Source: a virus. From it: DNA of 51,557 bases. The notes below the pieces were generated by a model, which worked only from the letters and a program-made list of their open reading frames with translations, had not been told where the DNA came from and did not search any database. This document shows positions 13,992-50,494 of this stretch, piece after piece. A program made the position numbers and the translations under genes. Numbering within the stretch: position 1 is the first letter of the stretch; each line of letters opens with the position of its first letter. The stretch covers positions 1-51,557 of IMG/VR virus record IMGVR_UViG_3300028887_000011. One strand, 5' to 3'.

Positions 13992-14174
13992 TTGAAAATG
14001 GAAAATGCAAGAATAGAAATCACTTTTAGAAGTGGTGAATCAGTAATATACAACCCAGAAGATTGGGACGACTATGCTTATGACGGTAAGTCTGTCATAG
14101 TAAAGAAGAATGGTTCATGGATAGGAATATATAACTTTGATTATGTGTTCTGCGTTGAATTGAAAGAAGGGTGA
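13992..14174 (+). CDS. Hypothetical protein (60 aa)
   Basis: Starts at TTG 13992 or ATG 13998 after AGGAGG (13981-13986). Confidence 0.45.
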   Translation: MKMENARIEITFRSGESVIYNPEDWDDYAYDGKSVIVKKNGSWIGIYNFDYVFCVELKEG

Positions 14175-14377
14175 ATATGCCTAAGAAATTTATAAAGGCC
14201 ACATTGATTCGTGCTGGCCACACTACAGCTCAAACGGCTCTTGGTATGATAGGCACATCGGTATTCATATCAGATATTAAATGGCCTCAGCTACTGAGTG
14301 CTGTAGGACTTGCTACAATGGTATCTATTTTGAAGTCAATAACCTTAGGTTTACCAGAAATAGATAAGGAGGAATGA
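14171..14377 (+). CDS. Holin (r1t/LL-H-like family)
   Basis: FIKATLIRAGHTTAQTALGMIG...WPQLLSAVGLATMVSILKSI matches the remembered r1t-holin pattern. It lies directly upstream of the endolysin. The start is either 14171 or 14177. Confidence 0.65.
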   Translation: MNMPKKFIKATLIRAGHTTAQTALGMIGTSVFISDIKWPQLLSAVGLATMVSILKSITLGLPEIDKEE

Positions 14378-14383
14378 AACAAA

Positions 14384-14911
14384 ATGAATAGTCCATATGA
14401 AGGAAAATTTTATATATCACAAGCTTTCAAAGGTTCAGCCCATGATGGATTGGATTTAGTCGGTATTGATTCAAAAGACATACATGCAACTGCAAATGGA
14501 AAAGTAATATTTGCTGGTTGGGAAAATCCAAATAACCATTATCAAGGCTTTGGTCAATATGTTGTGATTCAAGATGCAACAGGAAAAATGTTCCATTTCG
14601 GCCATTTATCTGAAATCAAATGTAATGTAGGTGACATAGTAAAAATCACTGATGTAATTGGTGTCGAAGGAAGTACAGGTCATTCTACAGGAAGTCATTG
14701 TCATTATTGTGTAAGAACCTCATTAAATCCCGGAACATTTCTTGATGTAAATGCTATTTCAGGTATTCCAAATATTGAGGGTGCTACCTATGATGATGGC
14801 TACAGACCAAATCAAAAGCAAGAAGTAAAAGAATCTGATACAAATAAAACAGTTGAAGCAATAATTGAGATTGAAGGACACAAATATTCAGGTTTACTTT
14901 CGGAGGTGTAA
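14384..14911 (+). CDS. Endolysin, M23 (LytM-type) metallopeptidase
   Basis: HDGLDL (HxxxD), ANGKVIFAG and GSTGHSTGSHCHY (HxH). TAAGGAGG upstream. Confidence 0.8.
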   Translation: MNSPYEGKFYISQAFKGSAHDGLDLVGIDSKDIHATANGKVIFAGWENPNNHYQGFGQYVVIQDATGKMFHFGHLSEIKCNVGDIVKITDVIGVEGSTGHSTGSHCHYCVRTSLNPGTFLDVNAISGIPNIEGATYDDGYRPNQKQEVKESDTNKTVEAIIEIEGHKYSGLLSEV

Positions 14912-14918
14912 ATGGAAT

Positions 14919-15167
14919 ATGGTAACATTGAGAGATTGTAAGCAAGTTGGAATGACAAATACTTTCCCACCTAAAAAGATTATTATAGCAGATATTCAAG
15001 TCGATGAAGAAGAGGAACTTGAATCAATAACAACAACAAGTATTCCTGGTTTTATTTTATTTCAAGGAAGTATAGTTTGGGTAATTTCAACAGGTGCATT
15101 TTATGCTATGACATCAGGCGGGCAATGGAAGTCACAAGGTGAAGGAGAATCAAGCGAGGGAACATAA
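14919..15167 (+). CDS. Hypothetical protein (82 aa)
   Basis: ORF 14865..15167 trimmed to ATG 14919, 10 nt after GGAGGTG. Confidence 0.45.
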   Translation: MVTLRDCKQVGMTNTFPPKKIIIADIQVDEEEELESITTTSIPGFILFQGSIVWVISTGAFYAMTSGGQWKSQGEGESSEGT

Positions 15168-15378: not shown

Positions 15379-18300
15379 GTGCCACAAGTTATTGTTTTAG
15401 AAGATGGTACTACAATTGTTCCATACAATTCAGATAGAACGGGTGCTCAGATGGATAGAGCAATGGACAGAGGAGATTCTGTAGGCGATATATCACAACT
15501 GAATACAACCGATAAATCAAGTATTGTAGGGGCAATAAATGAAACAAGTTCAGAAATTGCTAATGTGACACCTGCTGCCACGGCGGCAAGTAAGAATTTT
15601 GCAAATGAGTATGCTAAAAACACAAGAAGTATTTTTGCATCAGGATTGGCATGGGAGCAGGGTACAAGATATGAAAATGGTACAACAGCATCTGCAACAA
15701 ACAGAATCCGTAGTATGGTTGGCTTGTCACTCCCTGTCGGAACAACATTTACAGCTGCAACAGGATATAAAATTACTGTTATCGGTGCAAATGAAGCATC
15801 GACTACATGGTATTTTACAAGTGGCTGGGTTACAACATATACATTGAAGGACAATTGCAATTGTTATCTTCTTATTGCAAAGTCCGACGATACATCAATT
15901 AATATTGGTGATGTCGATATTGATTCTATTCTTGGAATTGTAGTTCCGAATGATTCAAGTGCTTATTACACAGATATAAATGTTGCAGCAGTTGGTGTCA
16001 TTGATACAACAACGGGTCAGCCAAGCTCAACTACAAATCGTGCTTATACAGATTTTACTAGTGTAAGAAGTGGCGACATTATCGGAGCAAAATTCGGAAA
16101 TGATGTCAGGATATATGTTCACAAATATGATTTTGAAAGAGCTTATCTTGGAAACAACGGAGCATGGATAAAAGGTGGTTATTACACAGTCGGTAGTGAG
16201 GCATTTATTAGGCTTTCAATTTCTTATGCAGACGACAGAACAGTTACAACGACTGACTTTGCAACATTTGAGTCTGATATCTATGTACAACGCAAAACGG
16301 CATCATTGTATGATGCAAGTACAGCACAAGAAGAAAAAATTTCTGATATCAATGCAGAAGTTGTTTCGCATAATATGAATCTTGCAGGTGAATACAGTGA
16401 AGGTGTAAGAAAGCTTTATACATCATATCTTGCATGGGAGCAAGGTACAAGGCAAGCAGATGGTTCAACTGGTTCGGCTGCAAACAGAATCCGTAGTATG
16501 ACAGGATTGATGTTACCTGTTGGCACAGTGGTTAAAGCTACATCTAATTATAAGGTAGTAATTATTGGAGCAAATAAAGATTCTGATGAATGGTACTTCA
16601 CAAGTGGATGGGTAAATGAGTTCACCGTTAAGGATAATTGTAATTGTTATTTTGTATTATCTAAAGCCAATAGTGCAAATTTGTCTGTAGATGATACACC
16701 AATAGATAGCATAGTTACAGTGGAAGTACCAACAGAACCTATTTTTACCACAGGTATTACAATGTCGGCTGTAGGTACAATTGATACATCAACTGGTCAG
16801 CCATCATCCACAACCAATCGTGCATATACAGAATTTTTCAATGTCAATGCAGGAGATTTAATTGGCATAAGAAACGGTAATAATGATAGAATCTATGTAC
16901 ATAAGTATGATGAAAGGTATAACTACTTAGGCAATAATGGTGCATGGATAAAAGGCAGTTTTTATACCGTTGGAACTGAAAAATATATACGTCTTACCAC
17001 ATCTTTCTCAGACGATAGAACAGTTACAACAGATATGTTTGCAACTTTTGAAGCAGACATCTATGTTCAGCGTAAAGTCGTAAATCTGTACAATGCAGAT
17101 GGGGAACAAGCTGATAATTCAACTGCTCTTAAAAATGGTTTTGCTATTGAACAGATGCCATATTTAATTCAGCAAGGAGGATACGATGGTAGTGGTGGAA
17201 TTGTATCAAATAACAAGAGAGTGCGTTCCTCAGACTGGTTTGAACTTGATTCTGATTGCGTTATCAAGAACTTAGACCCTGCTATTGGTGTAAATCTTGT
17301 CTGGAAAACAGGAACATCTATTGGTTCATGGGGATGGATTGAAGGTGCGTTTGAGTATGAAATACCTTATGTTGAAGGCAGAGTGTTTAAGATTACGGCA
17401 CATTATACAGATGAAGCAACAGCACTCTCAATTGGTGACTATCTGAGCAACGTACATATCTTTAAGACAAGCGATGCTATTACTATCGACAAAGATGAAT
17501 TACTTCCAAACTGGAAATCAAAAGTCAATGAAATACAAGCTTTGCAAGGAACCAAGTTTACATTTGGTGTGCAAACAGATAACCACGGTTATGACATAGA
17601 TACAAATGTTAAAATTACTCCTCTGAAAAACCTTACAAAATATATAGGTTTTGATTTTATCTGTAACCTCGGAGACGTTGTTCATGGTTACTCAGCTGAT
17701 ACCAAGGAGTCAATGCAGCTTTCTCTTACAGAGGCTATTAAGAGATATACAGACGGTGTATGTTGTCCATTCCTGTATGCACTTGGTAACCATGAGGATG
17801 ATATACTTTATACAACAGAGGGAACACAAAATAATGACCTTGACGAGGTTATCCTCGGTGATGAACTTTATGGAAGAACTATTGCTAAGGTTAAAAATAC
17901 TTGCCAGATACATCAACCATACAGAGGCTTCTATTATTACGTTGACTTTGATGAAATTCGTGTAATTGTTCTCAATACACGTGATATAGCATGGCAAGCA
18001 ATTAGCAGTTCTGATATTGATATCTCACATCATGTTATAAGTCAGACTCAAATAACATGGCTTAATGATGTTGCTTTTAATACAACTAAGAAAGTAATAA
18101 TTCTCAGTCATGTTCCTCTGCTTGATAGTCTTAATGCTGGTATCGACAATCCTGTCGAGAATGGTGCTGCTGTTCGGTCAGTTATTGAGGCACATGCTAA
18201 TCAGATGATAGGATGTTTCAGTGGTCATACTCATCGTCAGGCAAGCGATACAAGCAACGGCATTACTTATATTGTTTTTGCTAATGGCGGTCAGTTTGCT

Positions 18301-18393
18301 GAAGTAGTTATGGTTGATACAACTGAAAGAACTATTGAAACAAAAATGGTTGGCTATTATGGCAGTAGACAAGACCGAAGTTTTGAGTATTAA
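15379..18393 (+). CDS. Tail-fibre-like protein with tandem duplicated modules and a C-terminal calcineurin-like metallophosphoesterase domain
   Basis: GTG start after AAAGGAGAG. The N-terminal SIVGAINE motif is common in phage fibres. Phosphoesterase motifs are TDNHG, GDVVHG, GNHED, SHVPL and GHTHRQ. Confidence 0.7.
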   Translation: MPQVIVLEDGTTIVPYNSDRTGAQMDRAMDRGDSVGDISQLNTTDKSSIVGAINETSSEIANVTPAATAASKNFANEYAKNTRSIFASGLAWEQGTRYENGTTASATNRIRSMVGLSLPVGTTFTAATGYKITVIGANEASTTWYFTSGWVTTYTLKDNCNCYLLIAKSDDTSINIGDVDIDSILGIVVPNDSSAYYTDINVAAVGVIDTTTGQPSSTTNRAYTDFTSVRSGDIIGAKFGNDVRIYVHKYDFERAYLGNNGAWIKGGYYTVGSEAFIRLSISYADDRTVTTTDFATFESDIYVQRKTASLYDASTAQEEKISDINAEVVSHNMNLAGEYSEGVRKLYTSYLAWEQGTRQADGSTGSAANRIRSMTGLMLPVGTVVKATSNYKVVIIGANKDSDEWYFTSGWVNEFTVKDNCNCYFVLSKANSANLSVDDTPIDSIVTVEVPTEPIFTTGITMSAVGTIDTSTGQPSSTTNRAYTEFFNVNAGDLIGIRNGNNDRIYVHKYDERYNYLGNNGAWIKGSFYTVGTEKYIRLTTSFSDDRTVTTDMFATFEADIYVQRKVVNLYNADGEQADNSTALKNGFAIEQMPYLIQQGGYDGSGGIVSNNKRVRSSDWFELDSDCVIKNLDPAIGVNLVWKTGTSIGSWGWIEGAFEYEIPYVEGRVFKITAHYTDEATALSIGDYLSNVHIFKTSDAITIDKDELLPNWKSKVNEIQALQGTKFTFGVQTDNHGYDIDTNVKITPLKNLTKYIGFDFICNLGDVVHGYSADTKESMQLSLTEAIKRYTDGVCCPFLYALGNHEDDILYTTEGTQNNDLDEVILGDELYGRTIAKVKNTCQIHQPYRGFYYYVDFDEIRVIVLNTRDIAWQAISSSDIDISHHVISQTQITWLNDVAFNTTKKVIILSHVPLLDSLNAGIDNPVENGAAVRSVIEAHANQMIGCFSGHTHRQASDTSNGITYIVFANGGQFAEVVMVDTTERTIETKMVGYYGSRQDRSFEY
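15595..17076 (+). repeat. Intragenic tandem duplication (two ~234-aa copies: 15595..16296 and 16378..17076)
   Basis: The copies align along their length, for example LAWEQGTR...NRIRSM...KDNCNCY...TGQPSSTTNRAYT...RIYVHKYD...GNNGAWIKG...DDRTVTT...ATFE.DIYVQRK. Confidence 0.85.
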
Positions 18394-20893: not shown

Positions 20894-23020
20894 ATGGCAA
20901 ACAATCCATTAATTTATAAAAATGCTGAAAAAGTAAGGGATTCAATTACAGAATCTCAGAAAAAACAAATAGCAAAGTTATATGACGATTGGGCAAAAGA
21001 TATTGCTAAGATGGCAGAATATTACAAGAATAAAACAACAGCATCTGCTCCTTTATCAGCAAGGTATTATGAAGAACTTATGGCTCAATTAACCGAGACT
21101 TCACATCAAGTAAGTAATGAGGTGTATAAAGGACTTAAGCAAAGTATGTATCTTGTATCTGATGCGGTAATTGCAGATAATACAAAATGGCTTGAAAAGT
21201 TTGGCTTTCCAAAAGATGGATTGAATGCTGCATTTAGTTATGTTCCCGATAGTGTGGTAAGGTCAATTGCAACTGGTCAAGTATATGATTCAGGTTGGAG
21301 CTTATCGAAAAGAATTTGGGGAGATAATGAACAAACCATGCAAGACCTTTATAGGATAGTTGCTGGAGGTGTAGCTAAGCAGACACCGATTTATGATATA
21401 GCTAAACAACTTGAAAAATACGTTAAGCCAGGAGCTGCTAAACAATGGAATTTGACAGACAAAGATGGTAGAAAAATATATCCAAGACAAGTTGATTATA
21501 ATGCTCAGAGATTGGCAAGAACTTTAGTTCAGCATAGTTATCAGCAAGCATTTACTGCTGTATGTGAAAAAAATCCTTTTATAACTGATTATATTTGGAA
21601 TGCAAATGGCTCAAGAGTGTGTGAGATATGTAAAATGAGAGACGGACAACATTTCAAAAAAGACGAATTACCACTTGACCATCCAAATGGAATGTGTGTA
21701 ATGGAACCAAATGTGGTAGATGATATGACAAAGCAACTGGTAAATTGGTTTAATTCAGATGATGGAACATATCCTGAAATTGATGAATTTGCAAAGCAAT
21801 TTGGATATGATTCAAGTAAGTTTGAAGCACCAAAGTTTACCGATTTGCAAAACAAATATTTATTGCCATATGGTTTTAGTCCAAATAATATGCCAACAAA
21901 ATTTGAAGATTGGTCCTATAAAGTTTCATTTGACCAAGCATCAGAAATTCTTGCATCTATGGGAACAAGTTGGGGTGACCCACATCCATATCAAAAGCTG
22001 AAACAATATTTTGATGCTAATTTAGCAGGTGTTGGTACCAATATGCTTAATCAGCAAAAAGTTCAAGTGCAAACTCAACCTAAAAAGGAAGAAAAGAAAG
22101 TTAAGGTTGCTGAATTTACATATTGGCAGAATAAGTATCTTGGTCCTTATGGTTATAAAGCGGGCGAAAATATACCAAATTATGAAACATGGTATTTTAA
22201 TGCTACTTTCAAAGATATAAATAAAATGCAAAAAGAGGCTGAAAAGCTCGGCATGTCAATTGAAGATTTTTATGCTAAAAAAGTTGAAAAAGTCAAGTAT
22301 AAATATAAAACAGTTGAAGAGGCTAAAGTACTTGCTAGTGCAATTTCAAATGCAAATACTACCAACATTATCGACACATCAAGTTGGATAAGCATGGTTA
22401 AAAAGAACAATGAATCAGAAATTTTAGCAATAGAAGATGCAAAGAGAAAATTGCTAAGTACAGAAGAAGAAAAAGCTCTGCATAAATATACAGGTAGTGC
22501 TTATCGAACAATTAATGGATATTTGAGAGATAAAGCTGCTGGCAAGATTGATAAACCTGATGCAGATTTAGAAAAGTTAATTGCAGAAATGAGTTCAGGT
22601 TTGGAAAAGATGAAACTTGACAAAGACCTTTATGTTCGTAGAGGAACAGACTTGGGAGATTTGGCTGGTTTATTTATGACTGGCGATTTTAGTTCAAACG
22701 AATCAAGTTTATATGGAAAAACATCGGAAGAATTAAATGCAATGTTTCAAGGAGCAATTGGTGAATATGCAGGCTTTACAAGTACAAGTTCATTATGGAA
22801 CAGAGGTTTCTCTGGTTCTGTTGAAGTTGTTATGCGATTACCAGAAGGTACATCGGCTCAAAGTGTAATGAGAATAAGTCAATATGGAACAAGCGAAGGT
22901 GAAACTTTGCTTGACCATGGAATGAAAGTAAAGTGTTTGCTTATTGAAAAATCAGATGGACACCAGAGCTCAGCACACAGAGTATATCTTGATGTAATAC
23001 CTAAAAAAGAAAATAATTAA
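20894..23020 (+). CDS. SPP1 gp7 / Mu F-like minor head protein fused to a C-terminal ADP-ribosyltransferase domain
   Basis: Mu F-like signature NANGSRVCEICKMRDGQHF...PLDHPNGMCVMEP. ART motifs are YTGSAYRTINGYL, YVRRG (R), FTSTS (STS) and SEGETLL (ExE). Confidence 0.8.
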   Translation: MANNPLIYKNAEKVRDSITESQKKQIAKLYDDWAKDIAKMAEYYKNKTTASAPLSARYYEELMAQLTETSHQVSNEVYKGLKQSMYLVSDAVIADNTKWLEKFGFPKDGLNAAFSYVPDSVVRSIATGQVYDSGWSLSKRIWGDNEQTMQDLYRIVAGGVAKQTPIYDIAKQLEKYVKPGAAKQWNLTDKDGRKIYPRQVDYNAQRLARTLVQHSYQQAFTAVCEKNPFITDYIWNANGSRVCEICKMRDGQHFKKDELPLDHPNGMCVMEPNVVDDMTKQLVNWFNSDDGTYPEIDEFAKQFGYDSSKFEAPKFTDLQNKYLLPYGFSPNNMPTKFEDWSYKVSFDQASEILASMGTSWGDPHPYQKLKQYFDANLAGVGTNMLNQQKVQVQTQPKKEEKKVKVAEFTYWQNKYLGPYGYKAGENIPNYETWYFNATFKDINKMQKEAEKLGMSIEDFYAKKVEKVKYKYKTVEEAKVLASAISNANTTNIIDTSSWISMVKKNNESEILAIEDAKRKLLSTEEEKALHKYTGSAYRTINGYLRDKAAGKIDKPDADLEKLIAEMSSGLEKMKLDKDLYVRRGTDLGDLAGLFMTGDFSSNESSLYGKTSEELNAMFQGAIGEYAGFTSTSSLWNRGFSGSVEVVMRLPEGTSAQSVMRISQYGTSEGETLLDHGMKVKCLLIEKSDGHQSSAHRVYLDVIPKKENN

Positions 23021-41542: not shown

Positions 41543-42391
41543 ATGGGTTTACTCGATAAAATCAAATCAGATGTTGCTAAATCAGGCAGCAACAAAGGCA
41601 AGTTTATCTATTTCAGAGAAGGTCAAAAGGTCCGTGTACGTTTCCTCAATGACATGGACGAGGGCATGGAAGTAAAGTTCCATGACAGTTTTGAAAGAGG
41701 TATAAATGTTCCTTGTCAGGAACTGTTCGGCAGAAACTGTGCATATTGCGAAGATGATGATTTAAGAACCAGAAGTCAGTATGTATGGTCGGTATATGAT
41801 TATGAATCAAAGGAAGTTAAACTGTTCATGTTTGCAGTAAATAACTGTTCACCAATACCTGCTCTTATGGCAATGTATGAAACATATGGAACATTAACTG
41901 ACAGAGATTTTGTAATAACTGTGACAGGTAAGCAGCAGAACAAAACATTCTCTGTGGTTCCTATGGACAAAAACAAATTCAGAAATGAAAAGGCAAAACC
42001 TTTCTCAGAAAAGGCAATACTTAAAATGCTTGATAAGGCATTTCCTGCTGATGATTCAGACGACGACGAGGACGACGACGAGGACGAAGATGAGGACGAA
42101 AGACCTGCAAAGAAATCTAAGTCAACAAAGGGAGGCAATACAAGGGCAAAAGCCAAGGCTGAGCCTGAAGAAGATGATGCAGACTGGGAGGACGATGATG
42201 AAGCCGAGCAGGACTATTCAGAAATGACGCCTAAGGAACTTTTCAAGCTCTGCAAAGATAGAGACATTGAAGTTGTTCCAAAGAAGCCAGCGAAGTACTA
42301 CATCAACCTGCTTGAGGAATATGATGCTGCTCAGGAAGATTGGTCGGAAGATGATGAGGACGACGAAGAGGAGTGGGAAGATGATGAGTGA
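41543..42391 (+). CDS. T4 gp32-like ssDNA-binding protein with an acidic C-terminal region containing a HeH-like module
   Basis: VRVRFLND...KFHDSF...PC...NCAYC parallels the gp32 RFLP...H...C...CxxC zinc site. QYVWSVYDY corresponds to SYWANILVV. The tail ends EEEWEDDE. Confidence 0.6.
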   Translation: MGLLDKIKSDVAKSGSNKGKFIYFREGQKVRVRFLNDMDEGMEVKFHDSFERGINVPCQELFGRNCAYCEDDDLRTRSQYVWSVYDYESKEVKLFMFAVNNCSPIPALMAMYETYGTLTDRDFVITVTGKQQNKTFSVVPMDKNKFRNEKAKPFSEKAILKMLDKAFPADDSDDDEDDDEDEDEDERPAKKSKSTKGGNTRAKAKAEPEEDDADWEDDDEAEQDYSEMTPKELFKLCKDRDIEVVPKKPAKYYINLLEEYDAAQEDWSEDDEDDEEEWEDDE

Positions 42392-42818
42392 ATCGCAAAA
42401 TGGCTCGACACAGAAGAGGTCCCTTTCTGATTGGAATAAAATGATTGTTCCAAATGAAACTGCTTTTAGTACACTGTTTAAAATGCAGATGAAAAATCAG
42501 GATTTAATAATGTCCACAGGCTTGTATGAGGGATTTGTATATGAGCAAAAAGATTTGCCAACCGATGATACAAAATTGATGTCATATCATATTTTGCAAT
42601 TAATGTCAGAGATTGGCGAACTGCTTGATTCAGATAAGCGTTGGAAGAATTTTCGCAATGCAAAGTTTGAAAAGGACGAGAAGCTCATGGAACTTGCAGA
42701 TTGCTTTATTGTCTTAATGAACATAACAATATTTTCAGGATTTTCTGCCGATGAAATTGTGCAAGCAATTGCTGATAAGATAGTGACAGTGCGAAAGCGA
42801 ATAGAAGATAAGATGTAA
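42381..42818 (+). CDS. All-alpha NTP pyrophosphohydrolase (MazG / dimeric dUTPase-dCTPase superfamily)
   Basis: ILQLMSEIGELLDSDKRWKNF and KLMELADCFIVLMNI fit the ExxE...WK...ExxD pattern. ATG 42381 overlaps the end of the SSB gene. Confidence 0.55.
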   Translation: MMSESQNGSTQKRSLSDWNKMIVPNETAFSTLFKMQMKNQDLIMSTGLYEGFVYEQKDLPTDDTKLMSYHILQLMSEIGELLDSDKRWKNFRNAKFEKDEKLMELADCFIVLMNITIFSGFSADEIVQAIADKIVTVRKRIEDKM

Positions 42819-42826
42819 CAAAATCG

Positions 42827-42867
42827 GGAACGAGGAGTATGTGGTGTACTCCTCAGGTTCCTTATTT
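42827..42867 (+). terminator. Intrinsic terminator-like hairpin (13 bp with a 2-nt bulge) followed by TTATTT
   Basis: GGAACGAGGAGTA-tgtggtg-TACTCCTCagGTTCC, then TTATTTCT. Confidence 0.55.
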
Positions 42868-42879
42868 CTGGAGGGAAAA

Positions 42880-43431
42880 ATGGTTATAATAGTTGAAGGC
42901 ATTGACCGTATAGGAAAAACAACTTTATGCAATGCTTTATCAAAAAAGCTCGGTTTTCCAATTTACAAAGAACTTGGTGTCGAAAAGAAATCAAGAGAGG
43001 GAAATGTAAGGTCGCAAATGGCTCTTATAGGCCTGTGTCAGAAAACAGATTGCAATGTAATATTTGACAGAATGTTTACATCAGAGTGTGTCTATGGAAT
43101 GATTGACAGAGGGTACCCAATAAAATATGCAATTAATGATTTTAATTGTGCTCTTGCTGAGGCGGCTAAAATACCACATCTGGTATATGTTGGAATGAAG
43201 TCAACTGACATAAAAAAATCATCGGCAGAACATGGAAAAGAATTATCAAAACATGAGTGCATGTTTGATACAATGCAAAATTTTGTAAAGGAAAAAATTG
43301 ACAAGGTTTTTCTTGAATGCACTTATTTTGATATTGATAATCTTGTTGAAAAAATTTATGCTTATTATCTTGATTGTAAGGAGGAAATAGAGCATGCAAA
43401 GTGTACAGGTACAATTGACAACGAAGTGTAA
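42880..43431 (+). CDS. Thymidylate-kinase-fold dNMP kinase
   Basis: P-loop IVEGIDRIGKTT (compare EGxDGxGKTT) and FDRMFTSECVYG (DRY/F motif). ATG 42880 follows GGAGGG. Confidence 0.6.
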   Translation: MVIIVEGIDRIGKTTLCNALSKKLGFPIYKELGVEKKSREGNVRSQMALIGLCQKTDCNVIFDRMFTSECVYGMIDRGYPIKYAINDFNCALAEAAKIPHLVYVGMKSTDIKKSSAEHGKELSKHECMFDTMQNFVKEKIDKVFLECTYFDIDNLVEKIYAYYLDCKEEIEHAKCTGTIDNEV

Positions 43432-44260
43432 TGAAAGATGCTTTATGTGTAGGAAATACACATGGGAAAAGAAAGAAATTCCTTTTGAAGTTTTATTTGA
43501 AAAAATAAATAAGTACAAAGAAGCTAATTTCACATTTTCAGGCGGCGACCCACTTGAGTATTCAGAATTAAAAGCCTTGACTGAATTGCTCGTAAAAAAT
43601 AATATACGTTATCAGGTGTTTACAAATATGAATTATAATTTGACACCTGCTATGGAAGAATTTTTGCAGAATGCAGAATGCATACAAGTAAGCTTAGATG
43701 GCTCAACAGAAGAAGTATATAATTATGTTCGCAGACCAATTGAAAATGGTTTGATGTATGTAATTCACAATATTGAAAGATTCAAGTTAAAGGTCAAGGC
43801 AAATTGCACAGTATCAAATAGAAATTATCTTGATGTTCCAAATATCTATAACTTGGCAAAGCAGCTTGATGTTCCTATCAGATTTTTCCCTGTGCATACG
43901 CATGATGATGCAATGATAACATCTGAAATGTATAAAAGACTGGAATATAAAGTTTTAGGAGAAGAACCTCCCGAGGAAATTCAGAAATTATGCAAATTAA
44001 TGTCAGAAGGCAGACCGGAGTTCAGCAGTTGCTGGGTAAAGAGAGAGCACAGGGTGATAGATGAAAGTGGAAAAGAATATCCTTGTTGCAGAGCAATAAA
44101 TGATAATGGGGAAGATTGGGACGGAAAATATTCAATAGATAATTTGGAAGGTATAGAAAATGAAAATATTTTATATCCTTTCTGCAAAGGTTGCGATAGA
44201 TACATTAAGTTCAATACAAACAAAGAAAAGTATAAAAGAAAGGTTGGTCAATATTTATGA
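43394..44260 (+). CDS. Radical SAM enzyme with a Cys-rich (SPASM/twitch-like) C-terminal region
   Basis: CNERCFMC (CxxxCxxC, nt 43427-43450), FSGGDPLE and QVSLDGSTEEVYNYVRR. C-terminal cysteines are C...CC...CKGC. GGAGG upstream. Confidence 0.75.
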   Translation: MQSVQVQLTTKCNERCFMCRKYTWEKKEIPFEVLFEKINKYKEANFTFSGGDPLEYSELKALTELLVKNNIRYQVFTNMNYNLTPAMEEFLQNAECIQVSLDGSTEEVYNYVRRPIENGLMYVIHNIERFKLKVKANCTVSNRNYLDVPNIYNLAKQLDVPIRFFPVHTHDDAMITSEMYKRLEYKVLGEEPPEEIQKLCKLMSEGRPEFSSCWVKREHRVIDESGKEYPCCRAINDNGEDWDGKYSIDNLEGIENENILYPFCKGCDRYIKFNTNKEKYKRKVGQYL

Positions 44261-45405
44261 AAATTTTGTGGATACCGCAGATAAGCAGCAAGTCGATGGA
44301 CGGAAAAGTTTTATTGAATAAAGATAGCAATATGTCAGTTCTCAGAAACTTAATAGGAACCGATTTGACAGAAAAAAATAAAATAACCGTTGCATTTGAA
44401 TTTGCACCCGGAAACTGCCTCATAGATAAAGAGGTAAAAAATAATTTTGATTTGGTGTTCGATGAAACACATGAGTTTACAAATGCAATGCTTGAAAGAA
44501 TGCATTTTAATATCGATTATTTTATTGATATTAGAAAAATGAATTTTGACATTGTATTTACAAACGAACCGACAAAGGTTATTCCTTTAAGGAAGATTTT
44601 TACGAATATCCCAGTTGTCTGCTATAACCATTGGTTGGCATTCAAAAATATGCCAGAAATATCATTGAGGCAGGTAGAAGGAATGGCAGCAGCTGATTGT
44701 TGTTTCGTTAATTCAAACTATGTAGCCGAAATGGTAAATAATCATTATGTTGGTACATCAGATTTGAGTAGAATACATTTTGTTAAAGCTCAGCCGTCTT
44801 TTGCTGGCGATATTTATCCGGTTAATAAGGTAGATTCATCTGCAGCATTTATTTACAATCACAGGCTCAGTTCTGACCCCTACTATGCTGATGCTTATAA
44901 ATCTTTATGTCAAATATGCGACATATTAGAAAAGTACTTAGGAAAAGAAGGCAAGCCAATGCCAACAATATATTTTACAAATCCAAGCGGTAAGAGTTTC
45001 AAGTTTGATAAGGAATATTTTAAAGAGATACATTTGGAATCGCAAGAGGAATATAGAAAGTTTTTGAGGTCAAATAAAATCTGCGGTCATTTGAATACAT
45101 TTTTTAATTCAGCAGGAATGTGGTCAATGTCAACAGTTGATTGTGCTGCTGCTGGCAATCCTTGTATTGTTCCAAAAAAATATGGATATGCAGAAATATT
45201 TGAGGAAACATATTATGGATATGTCAAAAATGTGGAAGAGGCTGCTTTCAAAATATATGAATTAATTATGCACCCTGAAGTATGTGTAAAATATAAAAAT
45301 TCATTTATCGAGAATCACACAAATAAAGTGATAGGTAAATTGATGAATGATGAGCTTGAAAAGTGGGTAAATATATATAATATTCCAGTGTGTGGAGGAA
45401 AATAA
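44257..45405 (+). CDS. GT-B fold (GT4-like) glycosyltransferase
   Basis: DIVFTNEP, ADCCFVNSNYVAEMV, FIYNHRLS and GMWSMSTVDCAAAGNPCIVPKKYGYAEIFEE resemble the GT4 layout, but the EX7E glutamates are not conserved. ATGA overlap with the radical SAM gene. Confidence 0.5.
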   Translation: MKILWIPQISSKSMDGKVLLNKDSNMSVLRNLIGTDLTEKNKITVAFEFAPGNCLIDKEVKNNFDLVFDETHEFTNAMLERMHFNIDYFIDIRKMNFDIVFTNEPTKVIPLRKIFTNIPVVCYNHWLAFKNMPEISLRQVEGMAAADCCFVNSNYVAEMVNNHYVGTSDLSRIHFVKAQPSFAGDIYPVNKVDSSAAFIYNHRLSSDPYYADAYKSLCQICDILEKYLGKEGKPMPTIYFTNPSGKSFKFDKEYFKEIHLESQEEYRKFLRSNKICGHLNTFFNSAGMWSMSTVDCAAAGNPCIVPKKYGYAEIFEETYYGYVKNVEEAAFKIYELIMHPEVCVKYKNSFIENHTNKVIGKLMNDELEKWVNIYNIPVCGGK

Positions 45406-45406
45406 A

Positions 45407-46078
45407 ATGTATATCAATATGGTATGTGAATGTGATACTGCTACACAAGCTTTCGATTGGTGGTACGATAAACTTGTTCGTATGAGTGATTCACAAGAAT
45501 CAAGAGACGGAGAAGTGCACGGCGAAATTATAAATGCAATAACAGTTATCTCAGACCCAACAAGAAATATCTGCAAGTCAGATATACGCAAGTTGTCTAT
45601 GAGATATGCAATGGGAGAATTTCTTTGGTACTTGTCTGGCAACAATAATCTTTCAGAAATTCAGAAATACACAAACAACTGGGACAGAATGTCAGATGAT
45701 GGTAAAACAGTAAACTCAAATTATGGTTATTGTATTCAGCATAAATATGGCTTTAATCAGTTAGATTATATTTATAATTTGCTGAAAGAAAAGCCAGAGA
45801 CGAGGCAGGCTGTTATCCATATAAAAGCACCTGATAATTCAGAAAGCAAAGATGTAAATTGCACGGTTTGTTTACAATTTTTCATTCGAGAAAATAAGTT
45901 GTATATGACAACCTACATGAGGTCAAATGATATATGGCTTGGTTTTCCATATGATGTTTTTCAATTCTGCAATTTGCAGATATTACTGAGTATGAAACTC
46001 GGCATAGAGCTTGGCTCATATACACATATTGCAGGTTCATTGCATTTGTATGAAAGAGATGTGAAAAAAGATGTTTGA
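45407..46078 (+). CDS. Thymidylate-synthase-fold pyrimidine hydroxymethylase, T4 gp42 (dCMP hydroxymethylase)-like
   Basis: EFLWYLSG, VNSNYGY, PETRQAVIH, NCT (Cys152, nt 45860-45862), MRSNDIWLGFPYDV (Asp183, nt 45953-45955) and GSLHLYERD. Closely parallels the gp42 segments INSNYGW, MRSNDVVFGFRNDY and GSLHVYSRH. Confidence 0.75.
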   Translation: MYINMVCECDTATQAFDWWYDKLVRMSDSQESRDGEVHGEIINAITVISDPTRNICKSDIRKLSMRYAMGEFLWYLSGNNNLSEIQKYTNNWDRMSDDGKTVNSNYGYCIQHKYGFNQLDYIYNLLKEKPETRQAVIHIKAPDNSESKDVNCTVCLQFFIRENKLYMTTYMRSNDIWLGFPYDVFQFCNLQILLSMKLGIELGSYTHIAGSLHLYERDVKKDV

Positions 46079-48806
46079 TTTGCATAGGCATGATAATTTT
46101 TCAATATTCGATGGGTTTGGAAATCCAAAAGAACTAGCTGCTTTAGCAAAAGAAATAGGATATACTGCCTTAGGTATAACCAATCATGGAAATACAAATG
46201 GATTGGTTCAGCATTATTTCGCATGCAAAGAAGCAGGCATTAAGCCAGTGCTTGGAGTAGAGGGCTACTTTCTCCCTAAATATAAATCTCAGACGAGGGG
46301 CTACCATTTGATTTTGGTGGCAAAGAATGCAACTGGCTATAAGAACATGAACACCATACAATTCTTAGGAGAAAAGCAAAAGTATTATAACCCAATATGG
46401 GATTTTTCAATGCTGGAAAAATATCACGAAGGATTGATTTGTTCGTCTGCTTGTGTGGCTGGATTTTTAGCTCAGTGCATTATAAAAAATGAGTATGAAA
46501 AAGCAGAAAAGTTTTTGAGAAAAATGCAGGATATTTTTGAAGATGATTTTTATGTAGAGATTCAGCCATACAAAATATCCGATGAAGGTGTGCAAGAGCA
46601 TATCAATGTAGAATCAATAAAGTTAGCAAAGAAGCTTGGTATAAAATGTATTTTGACTTCTGACTCGCATAGAGGTAGAAAAGAGGATTTTGATTCGTAT
46701 TTGAAAATGCATGAAATTTCAAAGCATGATGAAGCATGGGTAAGGGGAACATATGAGGAAAGATATATGCCTGCTCCAACAGAAATGCAAAAGAGATTTG
46801 TAAAAATGCATATAAAAGATTTTGGAAAAGAAAAGGCTATTAAGCTGGCAAAAGAAATGGCTAAGAATGTAGCAGAGATAGAAGAAAAAGTTGAGCCCGA
46901 TATAATGGAACAACTCGAGTTGGTGATGCCAAAGATTGAGGATTCAGATTCGGTACAAAATCTGAAAAATGAAGTTATCAAAGGTTTGAAAGAAAAAGGC
47001 CTGTATAAAAAAGAGTATATTGAAAGATGCAAAGAAGAATTAAAGGTAATCATAAGTCATGGTTTTGCTGACTACTTTTTGGTTGTGCAAGATTATGTAA
47101 GATGGGCAAAACAAAGAGGAATTATAGTTGGACCAGGAAGAGGTTCTGTTTGTAATTCAGAAGTTGCTTATGCTTTAGGAATTACAGAAGTGGATTCAAT
47201 TATGTTTGGCTTGGACTTCAGACGTTTTCTTCGTATGGATAAAAAGAAAATACCTGATATTGACTTGGATTTTGAAACATCACGAAGAAAAGAAGTTATT
47301 GATTATCTAATAAAAAAGTATGAAGGTCATGCGGCAAGAATATGTGCTTACGGTTTATATCGAGTTGACAATACAATAAATGATTTGGCTTCTGTTTGTG
47401 GTTTAAGATTTTCCGGAACAGATTTGGACGAATCAGAAAAGAAGCGAAATAAATCAATTGTTGCAGATATAAAAGCATTTGCTAAACAATATGTTGAAGG
47501 CGAGGAACTTGATAAAGATGGCTTAATGTCAGATGATAGATACAAGATGTATAATGCAGAATATGATAACATAATGAAGCACTTTACAAAATTGTATAAA
47601 AAGGTTAGATACATCGGAACTCATGCTGCAGGTGTTGCTATTACAGGTGGAGATTTATCGCAATATACAGCAGTAAGAATCGATAAAGATGGAAACTATT
47701 TCACAAATTATGATTTGATAGACATTGAAAAAGTCAATGTAATTAAGTTCGATATTCTCGGCCTGCAAACAATGGAAAGTATAGGAGATTTAAGAAAGTC
47801 GACAGGTGTCACAGTTGATTATTCAGAAGTTGTAAATGATGAAAAGATTTTGAAAGCATTCAGAGAAGGAACATGCGATGGTATATTCCAGTTCGATTCT
47901 GTAACACCAAGGGGGATTCTAAAAAAGATTGAATGCGATTGTTTTGAAGATGCGGTTGCTGCTTCATCTATGAATCGTCCAGGACCATTGCAATTAAAAA
48001 TGCCAGATATGTATGCCGAGAATAAAACTAATGTTGAAGATGCAAGGGCAAGTAAATATTGGGAATATACTCAGGACACTTATGGCACAATTGTTTACCA
48101 AGAACAGATTATGCTAATTTGTGTAAATATAGGTGAAATGGAATGGGCAACTGCTGATAAAATTATCAAGATGATGAAGTCAACTTCTCAGAAGGCAGAA
48201 GAGGCTGCAGAGCAAAAAAGACTTGGTCAAAATTTATTGGAGGAGTTTTGGACAGGTGCTAAAAAGAAAGGATTTACAAAAGAAGAAGCCGAAGATTTAT
48301 TTGTAAAAATGACAGATTCATATTCATTCAACAAAGGACATGGTGTAGGCTATACATTAATATCATTCGAGGAAATGTTTTATAAAGTTTATTATCCGAC
48401 TGAATATTGGTTTTCCAAAATTAAGTATGCAAAAGATGATAAGCAATATAGAATATTTTGCGAAAAAGCTGTAAAAGATGGTTCAATAGTTTTCTTGCCA
48501 CATGTCAATTATTCTTCGGAAAGAACAAGGCTCAGAAAGATTGAAGGGGAAAATGCAATCCAGCAAGGTTTATCAGATATATTGGGTGTAGGAGAAAAGG
48601 CAGCTCAATATATTTTTGAAGAAAGAAAAAAGAACGGTGTATTTATTTCGTACGATGATTTTTATGACAGGTGCAAATCAAGAGTGGTGACATCAAGGGT
48701 AATAAATATATTGTTAGAATCAGGTGCACTTGAGTTCAATAAAAAGACATATATTAGCAGAATAAAAAAATATAATTCTGCATTATATGCACAAGCAAAT
48801 AGATGA
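46071..48806 (+). CDS. dnaE: DNA polymerase III alpha-type replicative polymerase (PHP plus Pol IIIa core), compact 911 aa
   Basis: FDLHRHDNFSIFDG (PHP), GPGRGSVCNSEVAYALGIT, DIDLDFE, KFDILGLQT, GIFQFDS, MNRPGP, YQEQIM and FNKGHGVGY. Confidence 0.9.
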   Translation: MFDLHRHDNFSIFDGFGNPKELAALAKEIGYTALGITNHGNTNGLVQHYFACKEAGIKPVLGVEGYFLPKYKSQTRGYHLILVAKNATGYKNMNTIQFLGEKQKYYNPIWDFSMLEKYHEGLICSSACVAGFLAQCIIKNEYEKAEKFLRKMQDIFEDDFYVEIQPYKISDEGVQEHINVESIKLAKKLGIKCILTSDSHRGRKEDFDSYLKMHEISKHDEAWVRGTYEERYMPAPTEMQKRFVKMHIKDFGKEKAIKLAKEMAKNVAEIEEKVEPDIMEQLELVMPKIEDSDSVQNLKNEVIKGLKEKGLYKKEYIERCKEELKVIISHGFADYFLVVQDYVRWAKQRGIIVGPGRGSVCNSEVAYALGITEVDSIMFGLDFRRFLRMDKKKIPDIDLDFETSRRKEVIDYLIKKYEGHAARICAYGLYRVDNTINDLASVCGLRFSGTDLDESEKKRNKSIVADIKAFAKQYVEGEELDKDGLMSDDRYKMYNAEYDNIMKHFTKLYKKVRYIGTHAAGVAITGGDLSQYTAVRIDKDGNYFTNYDLIDIEKVNVIKFDILGLQTMESIGDLRKSTGVTVDYSEVVNDEKILKAFREGTCDGIFQFDSVTPRGILKKIECDCFEDAVAASSMNRPGPLQLKMPDMYAENKTNVEDARASKYWEYTQDTYGTIVYQEQIMLICVNIGEMEWATADKIIKMMKSTSQKAEEAAEQKRLGQNLLEEFWTGAKKKGFTKEEAEDLFVKMTDSYSFNKGHGVGYTLISFEEMFYKVYYPTEYWFSKIKYAKDDKQYRIFCEKAVKDGSIVFLPHVNYSSERTRLRKIEGENAIQQGLSDILGVGEKAAQYIFEERKKNGVFISYDDFYDRCKSRVVTSRVINILLESGALEFNKKTYISRIKKYNSALYAQANR

Positions 48807-48825: not shown

Positions 48826-48854
48826 TTGACATTTTTCAGAAAATGTGATATAAT
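48826..48854 (+). promoter_or_regulatory. Consensus promoter P8 with extended -10
   Basis: TTGACA 48826-48831, TG 48846-48847, TATAAT 48849-48854. Confidence 0.8.
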
Positions 48855-49885: not shown

Positions 49886-50073
49886 TGGAAAAGTGTAAGA
49901 ATTGCAAATGCTTTGATAACAAAAGACCTGTATCGACATCGACAAGAAATGATGCATATAAAAATGCAGAAAAGTACATTGGATATTGTAAAAATACAAA
50001 TAGGCCAACAATGATGAATGATGGCTGCTTATATTTTGAACCGAAGGAGAAAAGCAATGAGCAGATTAAGTAA
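49885..50073 (+). CDS. Small Cys-rich protein (CKNCKC...C...C)
   Basis: ATG 49885 overlaps the recA stop (TGATG). GAGGAGGA lies 9 nt upstream. Confidence 0.45.
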   Translation: MEKCKNCKCFDNKRPVSTSTRNDAYKNAEKYIGYCKNTNRPTMMNDGCLYFEPKEKSNEQIK

Positions 50074-50494
50074 AGATGAATATTATTTGCAGATTGCAAA
50101 TGCTGTTTCTGAAAGAAGTACTTGCTTAAAAAGAAAGTATGGTTGTGTAATTGTCAAGAATGATGAAATTATTGCAACAGGTTATAATGGAAATCCAAGG
50201 GGAGAAAAAAATTGTTGTGATGTAGGAAAATGTGGAAGAATGAATAAGCCACATAATTCTGGCGATTATTCAGATTGTCACAGTGTTCATGCAGAACAGA
50301 ATGCCATGTTATCAGCTGCAAGAAAAGATATGATTGGTTCGACAATGTATATTGCAGGTATTGAGCCAATTCCTTTTTCTGGATATACCCAAGAAATATA
50401 TCCTTGCGAACCATGCCCCATTTGTGAAAGAATGATACGAAATGCAGGTATAAAAAAAGTGGTAACAATAAGTGGGGTAAAAGATTATGAGTAA
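50057..50494 (+). CDS. dCMP deaminase (ComEB/Cd type)
   Basis: STCLKRKYGCVIV, GYNG, HAEQNA and PCPICERMIRNAGI. ATG 50057 follows GAAGGAG. Confidence 0.85.
   Translation: MSRLSKDEYYLQIANAVSERSTCLKRKYGCVIVKNDEIIATGYNGNPRGEKNCCDVGKCGRMNKPHNSGDYSDCHSVHAEQNAMLSAARKDMIGSTMYIAGIEPIPFSGYTQEIYPCEPCPICERMIRNAGIKKVVTISGVKDYE

Follow-up and report, generated by a model that had tools for sequence, protein, structure and literature searches.

Hypermodified bases allow phage DNA to defeat restriction enzymes and CRISPR nucleases, and such hypermodification is also a source of enzymes used to label DNA and to sequence epigenetic marks. To our knowledge, the cytosine-sugar pathways known so far rely on group-transfer chemistry only. 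5-Hydroxymethylcytosine (5hmC) bearing a hexose, an N-acetylhexosamine or a heptose is known from phage gene clusters (bioRxiv 10.1101/2023.12.21.572611), and among radical S-adenosylmethionine (SAM) enzymes, installation of a DNA modification is reported for one alone, M6 gp53, an isomerase of thymidine hypermodification that resembles spore photoproduct lyase (SPL) (PMC8989533). Modelled on SPL, gp53 works on amino-acid adducts of 5-hydroxymethyluracil in DNA, together with 5-HMUDK, aGPT-Pplase and pyridoxal phosphate enzymes (PMC8989533). On the cytosine side, MilG acts on the sugar attached to 5-hydroxymethylcytosine, in a pathway that also uses the thymidylate synthase (TS) homologue MilA and a sugar transferase (PMC3715490). 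Here we describe a twitch-type radical SAM enzyme encoded at positions 43394–44260 (plus strand) of IMG/VR virus record IMGVR_UViG_3300028887_000011, the whole 51,557-nucleotide (nt) stretch of which was analysed (hereafter, the window). Its gene is genetically locked to those of a predicted 5-hydroxymethyl-dCMP (5hm-dCMP) synthase, a deoxynucleoside monophosphate (dNMP) kinase and, nearly always, a GT-B glycosyltransferase (GT). From the fold, the motifs, the conserved cysteines, the identities of the neighbours and their conserved linkage, we infer a functional two-cluster radical SAM enzyme that is a dedicated part of a cassette replacing cytosine by decorated 5hmC, and we propose, conditionally, how it might bind its clusters, on what it might act and by which type of reaction.

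The radical SAM open reading frame (ORF) begins at an ATG, with the Shine–Dalgarno (SD) sequence AAGGAGG 8 nt upstream, and encodes 288 aa. Pfam Radical_SAM (PF04055) recognizes it at 41 bits against a gathering score of 29.5, and its N terminus carries, exactly as the initial annotation had read them, the motifs CNERCFMC and FSGGDPLE. The first (aa 12–19; 43427–43450, plus strand) reads as a CxxxCxMC motif, in which C12, C16 and C19 form the predicted site of the SAM-binding [4Fe-4S] cluster; the second spans aa 48–55, and when 35 homologues are aligned with the protein, F48-S-G-G-D52 varies little or not at all. The gene is tightly packed, in agreement with what had first been noted at both of its ends: it starts 38 nt within the kinase ORF, which ends at 43431, and its TGA (44258–44260) overlaps the GT ATG (44257) as ATGA (44257–44260). 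Such overlapping codons suggest, without proving, translational coupling with the kinase and the GT, and the packing around the gene is equally tight in relatives of the window phage.

Five further cysteines—C213, C231, C232, C264 and C267—fall within the last 76 aa. When the window protein is aligned with the 35 homologues, which are 44–96% identical (36 sequences in all), C213, C264 and C267 are invariant, as are C19 and the preceding M18, whereas C231/C232 and C12/C16 are each conserved in at least 90%. The pattern persists in a second tier of about 55 further cluster representatives (50%-identity clusters) aligned to the family profile: C12, C16 and C19 are all present in every sequence that has its N terminus, and all eight cysteines are found in every full-length representative to E ~1e-35 (more than 40 sequences, to ~25% identity), beyond which a few sequences deviate at C264 or C232. 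Most of the full-length representatives in that range also share R20, K21, Y22, W24, S100, D102, R113, H168, T169, H219, D223, D237, R269 and N274. Judged by this conservation, the cysteine pattern is more than a chance feature.

The C-terminal 89 aa score 18.3 bits with Pfam SPASM (PF13186), just below the gathering score of 21.5, and match its first half only (positions 1–36; aa 213–253); two distant family members do exceed it over positions 1–67, P0052 with 26.6 bits and P0053 with 26.9. The full seven-cysteine SPASM pattern with its CX2CX5CX3C block is absent, there being no CX5CX3C past C267 in the window protein. The domain is thus of the one-cluster twitch type, twitch being defined as a SPASM domain shortened to one auxiliary cluster (PMC9012708). 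Its signature, C213-x17-C231-C232-x31-C264-x2-C267-D-R (44030–44215, plus strand), is set in the AlphaFold2 (AF2) model such that the cysteines flank a β-hairpin (219–228) and a helix (268–275). The SPASM similarity, the conserved cysteines and the model bear out the earlier suggestion of a SPASM/twitch-like second cysteine cluster, and we presume that this C-terminal domain carries a second, auxiliary [4Fe-4S] cluster.

The AF2 model, built on the family alignment (predicted local distance difference test (pLDDT) 91.2; predicted template modelling (pTM) score 0.90), has alternating β and α elements from E3 to E166 that form a partial TIM barrel. Searched with Foldseek against the PDB, it matches many radical SAM structures at a probability of 1.00, with BlsE (PDB 7VOB; E = 4.5e-12, TM-score 0.65) best, followed by CteB (a sactisynthase), viperins, anSME, SuiB, DesII, SkfB and MoaA. 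BlsE is also the best solved relative in a single-protein sequence search (2.7e-5, 18% identity), over the N-terminal 155 residues only. Several of these closest structures act on nucleosides, nucleotides or nucleotide sugars, namely BlsE (cytosylglucuronate), viperin (CTP), DesII and MoaA (GTP). At the level of named families, the window protein and ten relatives produce sub-threshold NCBIfam matches only, to many SPASM/twitch equivalogs. The window protein scores 30.8 bits with BlsE (TIGR04466; cut-off 400), 34.3 with viperin (NF038283; cut-off 180), 23.1 with QueE (cut-off 260), 20.5 with NrdG (cut-off 131) and ~29 with MoaA (cut-offs 231–325); as all of these lie far under their cut-offs, it belongs to none of the five families. 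Homologue clusters are named merely 'radical SAM/SPASM domain-containing protein', and a viral fold search in BFVD returns generic uncharacterized phage radical SAM/SPASM proteins only, at no more than 18% identity. Remote homologues with fused domains (duplicated radical SAM/SPASM units, one HD-CE domain, one HAD domain) offer no functional clue. Profile and structure searches together place the enzyme in the radical SAM superfamily as a twitch-type member, with BlsE as its nearest solved structure and no equivalog family reached.

The initial annotation had considered QueE and dismissed it. A QueE-type 7-deazaguanine enzyme, or an NrdG-like activase of a glycyl-radical enzyme, could appeal to weak N-terminal profile matches (NrdG2, 2.4e-4; QueE, 5e-5; a PHROG QueE-like profile, 3.5e-5). 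We regard either identity as highly improbable and, on the following evidence, effectively refuted: the equivalog scores of 20.5 and 23.1 bits stand against cut-offs of 131 and 260, the NrdG and QueE families are without a twitch domain, and the expected partner genes were not encountered. Our Pfam scan took in 40 window ORFs, those of the non-structural regions, leaving aside some twelve ORFs of 110 aa or longer in the head and tail region (~23.4–35.6 kb) and ORFs of less than 110 aa in 1–38 kb; among the 40, there is no QueC, QueD, FolE or DpdA, as had been stated before, and no NrdD or any other glycyl-radical enzyme.

The two genes that follow give the enzyme its context. The GT gene (44257–45405, plus strand) encodes a 382-aa protein with weak Pfam matches to Glyco_transf_4 and Glyco_trans_1_2; its AF2 model (pLDDT 92.4) is clearly that of a GT-B fold glycosyltransferase, GT4-like and of the retaining type, and Foldseek aligns it with MshA (5e-11), BshA, PglA, a mannosyltransferase (7qsg, TM-score 0.70) and the DNA glycosyltransferase of phage HY126 (1e-9). 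The TS homologue (45392–46078, plus strand; Pfam Thymidylat_synt, 1.5e-27) has as its best solved relative MilA, a CMP 5-hydroxymethylase (1.2e-27). In this superfamily, N177D confers specificity for cytosine (dCMP), L143D/E admits water and yields a hydroxymethyl product, and D169N marks 5-hydroxy-dCMP synthases (PMC13326640). Numbered through an Escherichia coli ThyA sequence, the numbering of which reproduces the published residues, the window homologue retains the catalytic C146 and D169 and carries L143D and N177D, as does its counterpart in every related locus checked. Under those rules (PMC13326640) it bears the signature of a 5hm-dCMP synthase. A 5-hydroxy-dCMP pathway, which needs D169N and O2, was rejected on the retained D169. 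The TS signature, the MilA match and the GT-B model give substance to the hydroxymethylcytosine and glycosylation context that had been assigned to the operon from its first reading.

Homologues of the radical SAM protein occur in metagenomic data only, as 35 close clusters and 45 representatives at E < 1e-30 among 1.84 billion, and the family is carried by ten IMG/VR contigs and one 6.7-kb contig binned into a yak-colon Clostridia metagenome-assembled genome (MAG). Against 50,697 phage records, neither megablast of 42000–46500 nor tblastn of the radical SAM protein or of the GT gave a match, and tblastn of two second-tier members gave 22–27% matches to unannotated records, none with a TS or kinase nearby. 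A feature of Wolbachia phage WO (MN180251.1, 55295–56104), which bears the annotation 'glycosyl transferase, group 1 family protein / moaA/nifB/pqqE family' and weakly resembles a second-tier member (25% identity, 6e-6), is another phage pairing of GT and radical SAM. From the closest isolates and the yak-colon MAG, the hosts would be strictly anaerobic, Clostridia-type bacteria.

Gene calling and clustering were performed in 19 first-set loci, and the family total came to 31 loci on about 20 distinct contigs. As far as the contigs reach, the first-set loci follow the order primase, single-stranded-DNA-binding protein (SSB)-like gene, (MazG-like gene), kinase, radical SAM, GT, (nucleotidyltransferase), TS and DNA polymerase III α (PolIIIα). 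A kinase homologue lies immediately 5′ of the radical SAM gene in 17 of the 19 and is adjacent to it in loci L023, L037 and L038; the GT lies directly 3′ in all 19 and in L025, L037 and L047. Across the 31 loci, a kinase-like gene stands beside the radical SAM gene wherever the flank is present (in L025, a uracil-DNA glycosylase (UDG)-like gene intervenes), and a hydroxymethylase-type TS is encoded one to five genes away in every locus that reaches far enough downstream (27 of 27). A search seeded with the GT added twelve loci, eleven from IMG/VR and L047, a fresh 60-kb contig with the radical SAM gene directly 5′ of the GT. Ten of those eleven are on contigs that also carry the radical SAM gene; in the remaining one, the GT begins 250 bases from the contig end and the upstream gene is beyond view.

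Distant members of the family (full-length, 320–345 aa; profile E values of 1e-74 to 1e-44) reside in similar cassettes in L023, L024, L025, L038 and L043. L025 reads dUTPase_2, kinase, UDG-like gene, radical SAM, GT homologue (2e-60), TS and PolIIIα; L023 and L024 read dUTPase_2, radical SAM, kinase, UDG-like gene, UDP-galactopyranose (UDP-Galp) mutase, a 351-aa protein and TS; L038 reads radical SAM, kinase, a different Glyco_trans_1_2 protein and TS; and L043 reads a 172-aa protein, radical SAM, a 302-aa protein and TS. Alignment of the GT profile with the partner proteins of L038 and L023 by hhalign detected no relation. The UDG-like gene of these distant cassettes (L025, 7321–8004) is of family 4, and the region 9558–11395 of L023 also holds the UDP-Galp mutase (5.6e-70). 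The most revealing example is L037, a 79-kb phage that encodes PolB, topoisomerase II and a ribonucleotide reductase and in which a kinase-like gene (6e-14), radical SAM, a GT homologue (4.6e-44) and a TS of the same signature follow one another; as the replication module there is unrelated, the four genes behave as a mobile cassette. Close to its ribonucleotide reductase gene, the same phage has a second radical SAM gene (14039–15124), the C-terminal domain of which is of the lysine-2,3-aminomutase kind, and in L004 (5190–6719) Amidoligase_2 and γ-glutamyl cyclotransferase (GGACT) genes lie a few kilobases 5′ of the cassette.

This linkage bears on whether the enzyme has any part in DNA modification. 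It could instead be viperin-like, making a chain terminator from a host nucleotide or destroying an immune signalling nucleotide, or it could be a peptide or protein maturase, its place in the operon reflecting early co-expression only. The best match of the family profile in the PDB is indeed a fungal viperin-like enzyme (2.8e-8, residues 3–266), the peptide maturases CteB, SuiB, SkfB and anSME are among the structural neighbours, and P0036, the nearest relative outside such cassettes, is one of three tandem radical SAM/SPASM genes in a cluster resembling those for peptides made by ribosomes and modified after translation (RiPPs). P0036 is only 26% identical, however, and we regard it as belonging to a separate family; no gene for a precursor peptide is apparent; and a viperin identity was rejected at 34.3 bits against 180 and by the five extra cysteines, which viperins do not have. 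In the neighbourhood survey, a TS homologue and a kinase-like gene accompany the enzyme at every family locus that reaches far enough downstream, including the phage with the unrelated replication module. A role outside DNA modification is therefore improbable in our view, and it is further opposed by the joint absence of the radical SAM gene and the GT in a cultured relative. We consider it very probable that the radical SAM protein belongs to a 5hmC hypermodification pathway.

That relative, Agathobaculum phage AB434P2 (OP172633.1), is the closest in culture. It has the MazG gene, the kinase and a TS 66% identical to that of the window with the same signature, and it is without both the radical SAM gene and a window-type GT. 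In the same slot, which with the MazG gene and the kinase spans 416–5582 of L039, the TS is surrounded by genes for a 366-aa protein weakly resembling choline kinases, for a cytidylyltransferase-like protein and for two further proteins of 328 and 361 aa to which we assign no function. Its TS is annotated 'deoxyuridylate hydroxymethyltransferase', yet carries N177D and L143D, by which the substrate is probably dCMP; the slot may hold another, unexplored decoration of 5hmC, in a phage that can be grown. In Clostridium phage CS266P3 the slot is empty, with nothing between the SSB-like gene and the polymerase. Taken together, the two phages identify the slot as a variable DNA-modification island. 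CS266P3 has no modification cassette at all, and a gene with the annotation HNH endonuclease I-HmuI divides its PolIIIα gene into two ORFs (L040, 6989–10555). Two consequences follow from AB434P2: the pre-replicative trio of TS, kinase and MazG needs no radical SAM enzyme, and the radical SAM gene and the GT are gained or lost together.

What varies within the family is the supply of sugar. In L001 (15574–18411), and likewise in L002, L005 and L018, the polymerase gene is followed by an HddA-like heptose-7-phosphate kinase and a 613-aa nucleotidyltransferase/GmhB/GmhA fusion, which is a complete route to nucleoside diphosphate (NDP)-glycero-manno-heptose in two genes. Elsewhere, the GT has a C-terminal cupin of the phosphomannose isomerase (PMI) type and is followed by an RfaE-domain-II/TagD-like nucleotidyltransferase (L004, 10913–12349; L006, 8921–10390; L013, 10888–12369; L047, 7001–8464), and some family phages have a GT8-like second transferase. 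The window phage encodes none of the heptose, PMI cupin, nucleotidyltransferase, GT8-like or UDP-Galp mutase genes.

We propose the following route. A MazG-like enzyme would deplete the cell of dCTP, presumably removing the canonical nucleotide as T4 gp56 does; the TS homologue would make 5hm-dCMP; and the thymidylate kinase (TMPK)-like enzyme, presumed to be a 5hm-dCMP kinase, would phosphorylate it, so that 5hmC could enter DNA through the phage polymerase. The GT-B enzyme would then transfer a sugar to the hydroxymethyl group. Working on the nucleotide-sugar donor or on the sugar already attached, the radical SAM enzyme would cleave SAM to a 5′-deoxyadenosyl radical that could abstract hydrogen from the sugar or from the region of the sugar-O-CH2 linkage, with the auxiliary cluster taking or giving back an electron; the sugar might thereby be oxidized, dehydrated, decarboxylated or epimerized, giving a form not available through ordinary enzymes. 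In our preferred explanation, to which we give even odds, the radical SAM enzyme works as a unit with the GT when 5hmC is decorated, and its target is most probably the sugar. The sugar is favoured because the comparison with AB434P2 ties the enzyme to the GT and not to the TS and kinase, and because BlsE/MilG, DesII and viperin take hydrogen from sugar carbons of nucleoside-type substrates, MilG doing so on a hydroxymethylcytosine glycoside. Both the heptose and the PMI-type supply are manno-configured, and we speculate that C2–C4 of the ring could be a constant target within the close clade. Decarboxylation of a glucuronosyl group in the manner of BlsE was retained as a candidate for the specific reaction, but we find no uronic-acid gene, and the relatives supply heptose- or mannose-type donors.

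Several observations weigh against placing the reaction on the sugar. The sugar-supply genes differ from phage to phage (the NDP-heptose route, PMI cupin with nucleotidyltransferase, UDP-Galp mutase or none), and the distant cassettes L038, L023 and L043 have a different GT partner protein; an enzyme that stays constant while sugars and GTs change is unexpected for sugar-specific tailoring, and a substrate in the base or the hydroxymethyl group fits equally well. No reductase or aminotransferase is present that would finish a keto-sugar intermediate, and we found no characterized homologue of the protein and no named family for it. Furthermore, its acidic isoelectric point (pI, 5.97) and the absence of any recognizable DNA-binding domain speak, weakly, against action on DNA and lean towards a small-molecule substrate.

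Some of these observations lend weight to a different target, the pyrimidine itself. Here the enzyme would take hydrogen from the 5-CH2OH of 5hm-dCMP, 5hm-dCTP or 5hmC in DNA, producing either a 5-formyl group, in the manner of BtrN and anSME with the auxiliary cluster as electron sink, or a new C–C or C–X bond; in both cases the group that the transferases go on to decorate would be created. Such base-level chemistry explains better than sugar tailoring why the radical SAM enzyme, the kinase and the TS are constant over deep divergence while GT family and sugar supply change. It is in keeping with the binding of nucleoside triphosphates by viperin and MoaA, with the conserved basic residues R20, K21, R113 and R269, which could bind phosphates, with an acidic pI suited to a small-molecule substrate and with the two-electron oxidations that typically accompany fully ligated twitch/SPASM clusters (PMC9012708). 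It is nonetheless doubtful to us: AB434P2 runs TS, kinase and MazG with no radical SAM enzyme, so the pre-replicative route needs none; the joint disappearance of radical SAM and GT is less well explained; a 5-formyl group cannot accept a glycosyl unit, although in nearly all cases a GT gene lies next to that of the enzyme; and there is no precedent. In the most far-reaching reading, we tentatively suggest, at somewhat less than even confidence, a cytosine hypermodification in which radical chemistry on glycosylated 5hmC or its precursor leaves a deoxy-, keto-, decarboxylated or C–C-linked sugar–base adduct, installed by the first SPASM/twitch radical SAM enzyme known in DNA modification from a mobile cassette of four genes (kinase, radical SAM, GT and dCMP hydroxymethylase) that passes between unrelated phage lineages.

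In the window, which is a whole siphophage genome (terminase, SPP1-type portal, major capsid protein, primase, PolIIIα, a RecA-like protein, a dCMP deaminase, a Cas4-like exonuclease and, among the tail genes, an ORF of 1155 aa), the genes for the MazG-like enzyme, kinase, radical SAM enzyme, GT, TS homologue and PolIIIα form a single, tightly packed co-directional block. The MazG/dUTPase_2-like NTP pyrophosphatase (42381–42818, plus strand) matches Pfam dUTPase_2 at 1.1e-4 (23.0 bits; cut-off 22.9) and PHROG 173 at 4.7e-9, and has the same position in the cassettes of relatives. It most likely starts at ATG 42381, which follows an SD sequence and overlaps the stop of an acidic-tailed SSB-like gene, the listed ORF start of 42267 being probably too far 5′. 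The TMPK-like P-loop dNMP kinase (42880–43431, plus strand) is recognized by Thymidylate_kin (P-loop, 4e-6), PHROG 761 (1e-12) and NCBIfam dTMP kinase (1e-8) and contains the motifs EGIDRIGKTT and DRMF; ATG 42880, with the SD sequence GGAGGG, and not GTG 42841, is most likely its start. The block closes with a DnaE-type PolIIIα (46071–48806, plus strand), assigned through the Pfam families of its homologues and 60% identical to the AB434P2 protein. A perfect σ70 consensus (TTGACA, 17 nt, TATAAT, with an upstream TG) comes only past the polymerase gene, at 48826–48854, 20 nt from the PolIIIα stop and before the RecA-like gene, and marks where the block of modification and replication genes ends; across the window, sites resembling promoters are no commoner than in shuffled sequence. 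The dCMP deaminase (50018–50494, plus strand; Pfam dCMP_cyt_deam_1, 4.8e-22; PHROG 174, 1e-47) belongs to the context of the nucleotide pool. Two long ORFs outside the block deserve mention. Directly 3′ of the portal gene, positions 20894–23020 encode 708 aa with a MuF-like head-morphogenesis domain and an ADP-ribosyltransferase exoenzyme domain (6e-28), and between terminase and portal, positions 15379–18393 encode a 1004-aa protein recognizable only at its C terminus, by a calcineurin-like phosphoesterase domain.

That the radical SAM partner is conserved implies that the product lies beyond the reach of group transfer, and the finding predicts a DNA base that has so far gone undescribed. 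If this is true, radical SAM chemistry on DNA bases would extend from thymidine, as in M6 gp53, to cytosine, and to a different fold class. The family is seen only in uncultured phages, the presumed hosts of which are strict anaerobes of the gut and rumen. Library preparation may fail on DNA with such a modification, or base calling may be distorted, which would alter the picture that metagenomes give of these phages. At ~3.7 kb, the cassette is compact and self-contained and hence directly testable.

Among described enzymes, BlsE and MilG share with the window protein a CxxxCxMC motif with methionine before the last cysteine (CNADCFMC in BlsE, CNERCFMC in the window), a form singled out as unusual in these two (PMC3715490). 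They differ in that their sugar is on N1 of a free base and not on the 5-CH2OH of a DNA base, and BlsE is described as a typical single-cluster enzyme (PMC3715490), whereas the window family has five conserved C-terminal cysteines. The likeness to twitch enzymes (BtrN, MoaA) and SPASM proteins lies in the C-terminal extension, which is homologous to Pfam SPASM and places its cysteines around a β-hairpin and a helix. The C213-x17-C231 … C264-x2-C267 spacing presumably resembles that of BtrN. What sets the window family apart from both is a conserved CC doublet, five cysteines instead of three or four, a presumably different substrate and a different genomic context; we know of no SPASM/twitch member from a DNA-modification pathway. 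Viperins match in fold, and the profile match to residues 3–266 takes in some of the C-terminal extension. They differ in that cysteines for an auxiliary cluster are missing from them and in that their genes serve host defence, not phage modification.

M6 gp53, in line with the earlier statement that radical SAM enzymes are known in some thymidine hypermodification clusters, is likewise a phage radical SAM enzyme of a pyrimidine hypermodification cluster and acts after a TS homologue has made the hydroxymethyl-pyrimidine (PMC8989533). It is SPL-like and acts on thymidine, whereas the window enzyme is of the SPASM/twitch–viperin–BlsE class, is associated with cytosine and has a GT partner; no SPL structure is among its best 50 Foldseek matches. 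With the T4-type glucosyl-5hmC pathway, the window cassette has in common a TS homologue of the dCMP-hydroxymethylase type, a dNMP kinase, an NTP pyrophosphatase and a GT-B glycosyltransferase. In the window, by comparison with T4, the NTPase is MazG/dUTPase_2-like, the kinase is TMPK-like and the hosts would be strictly anaerobic. Neither the T4-type pathway nor the metavirome 5hmC-glycan clusters, which combine a methyltransferase, TET and a GT, include a radical SAM enzyme; the two papers on them do not use the term. Literature searches found no description of a radical SAM enzyme in a 5hmC pathway or of this enzyme, which agrees with the initial annotation in knowing of none in a hydroxymethylcytosine and glycosyl context. 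Phage cytosine hypermodification by a TS homologue, a kinase and a GT is thus the known part of this system, and the radical SAM member in that setting is the new one.

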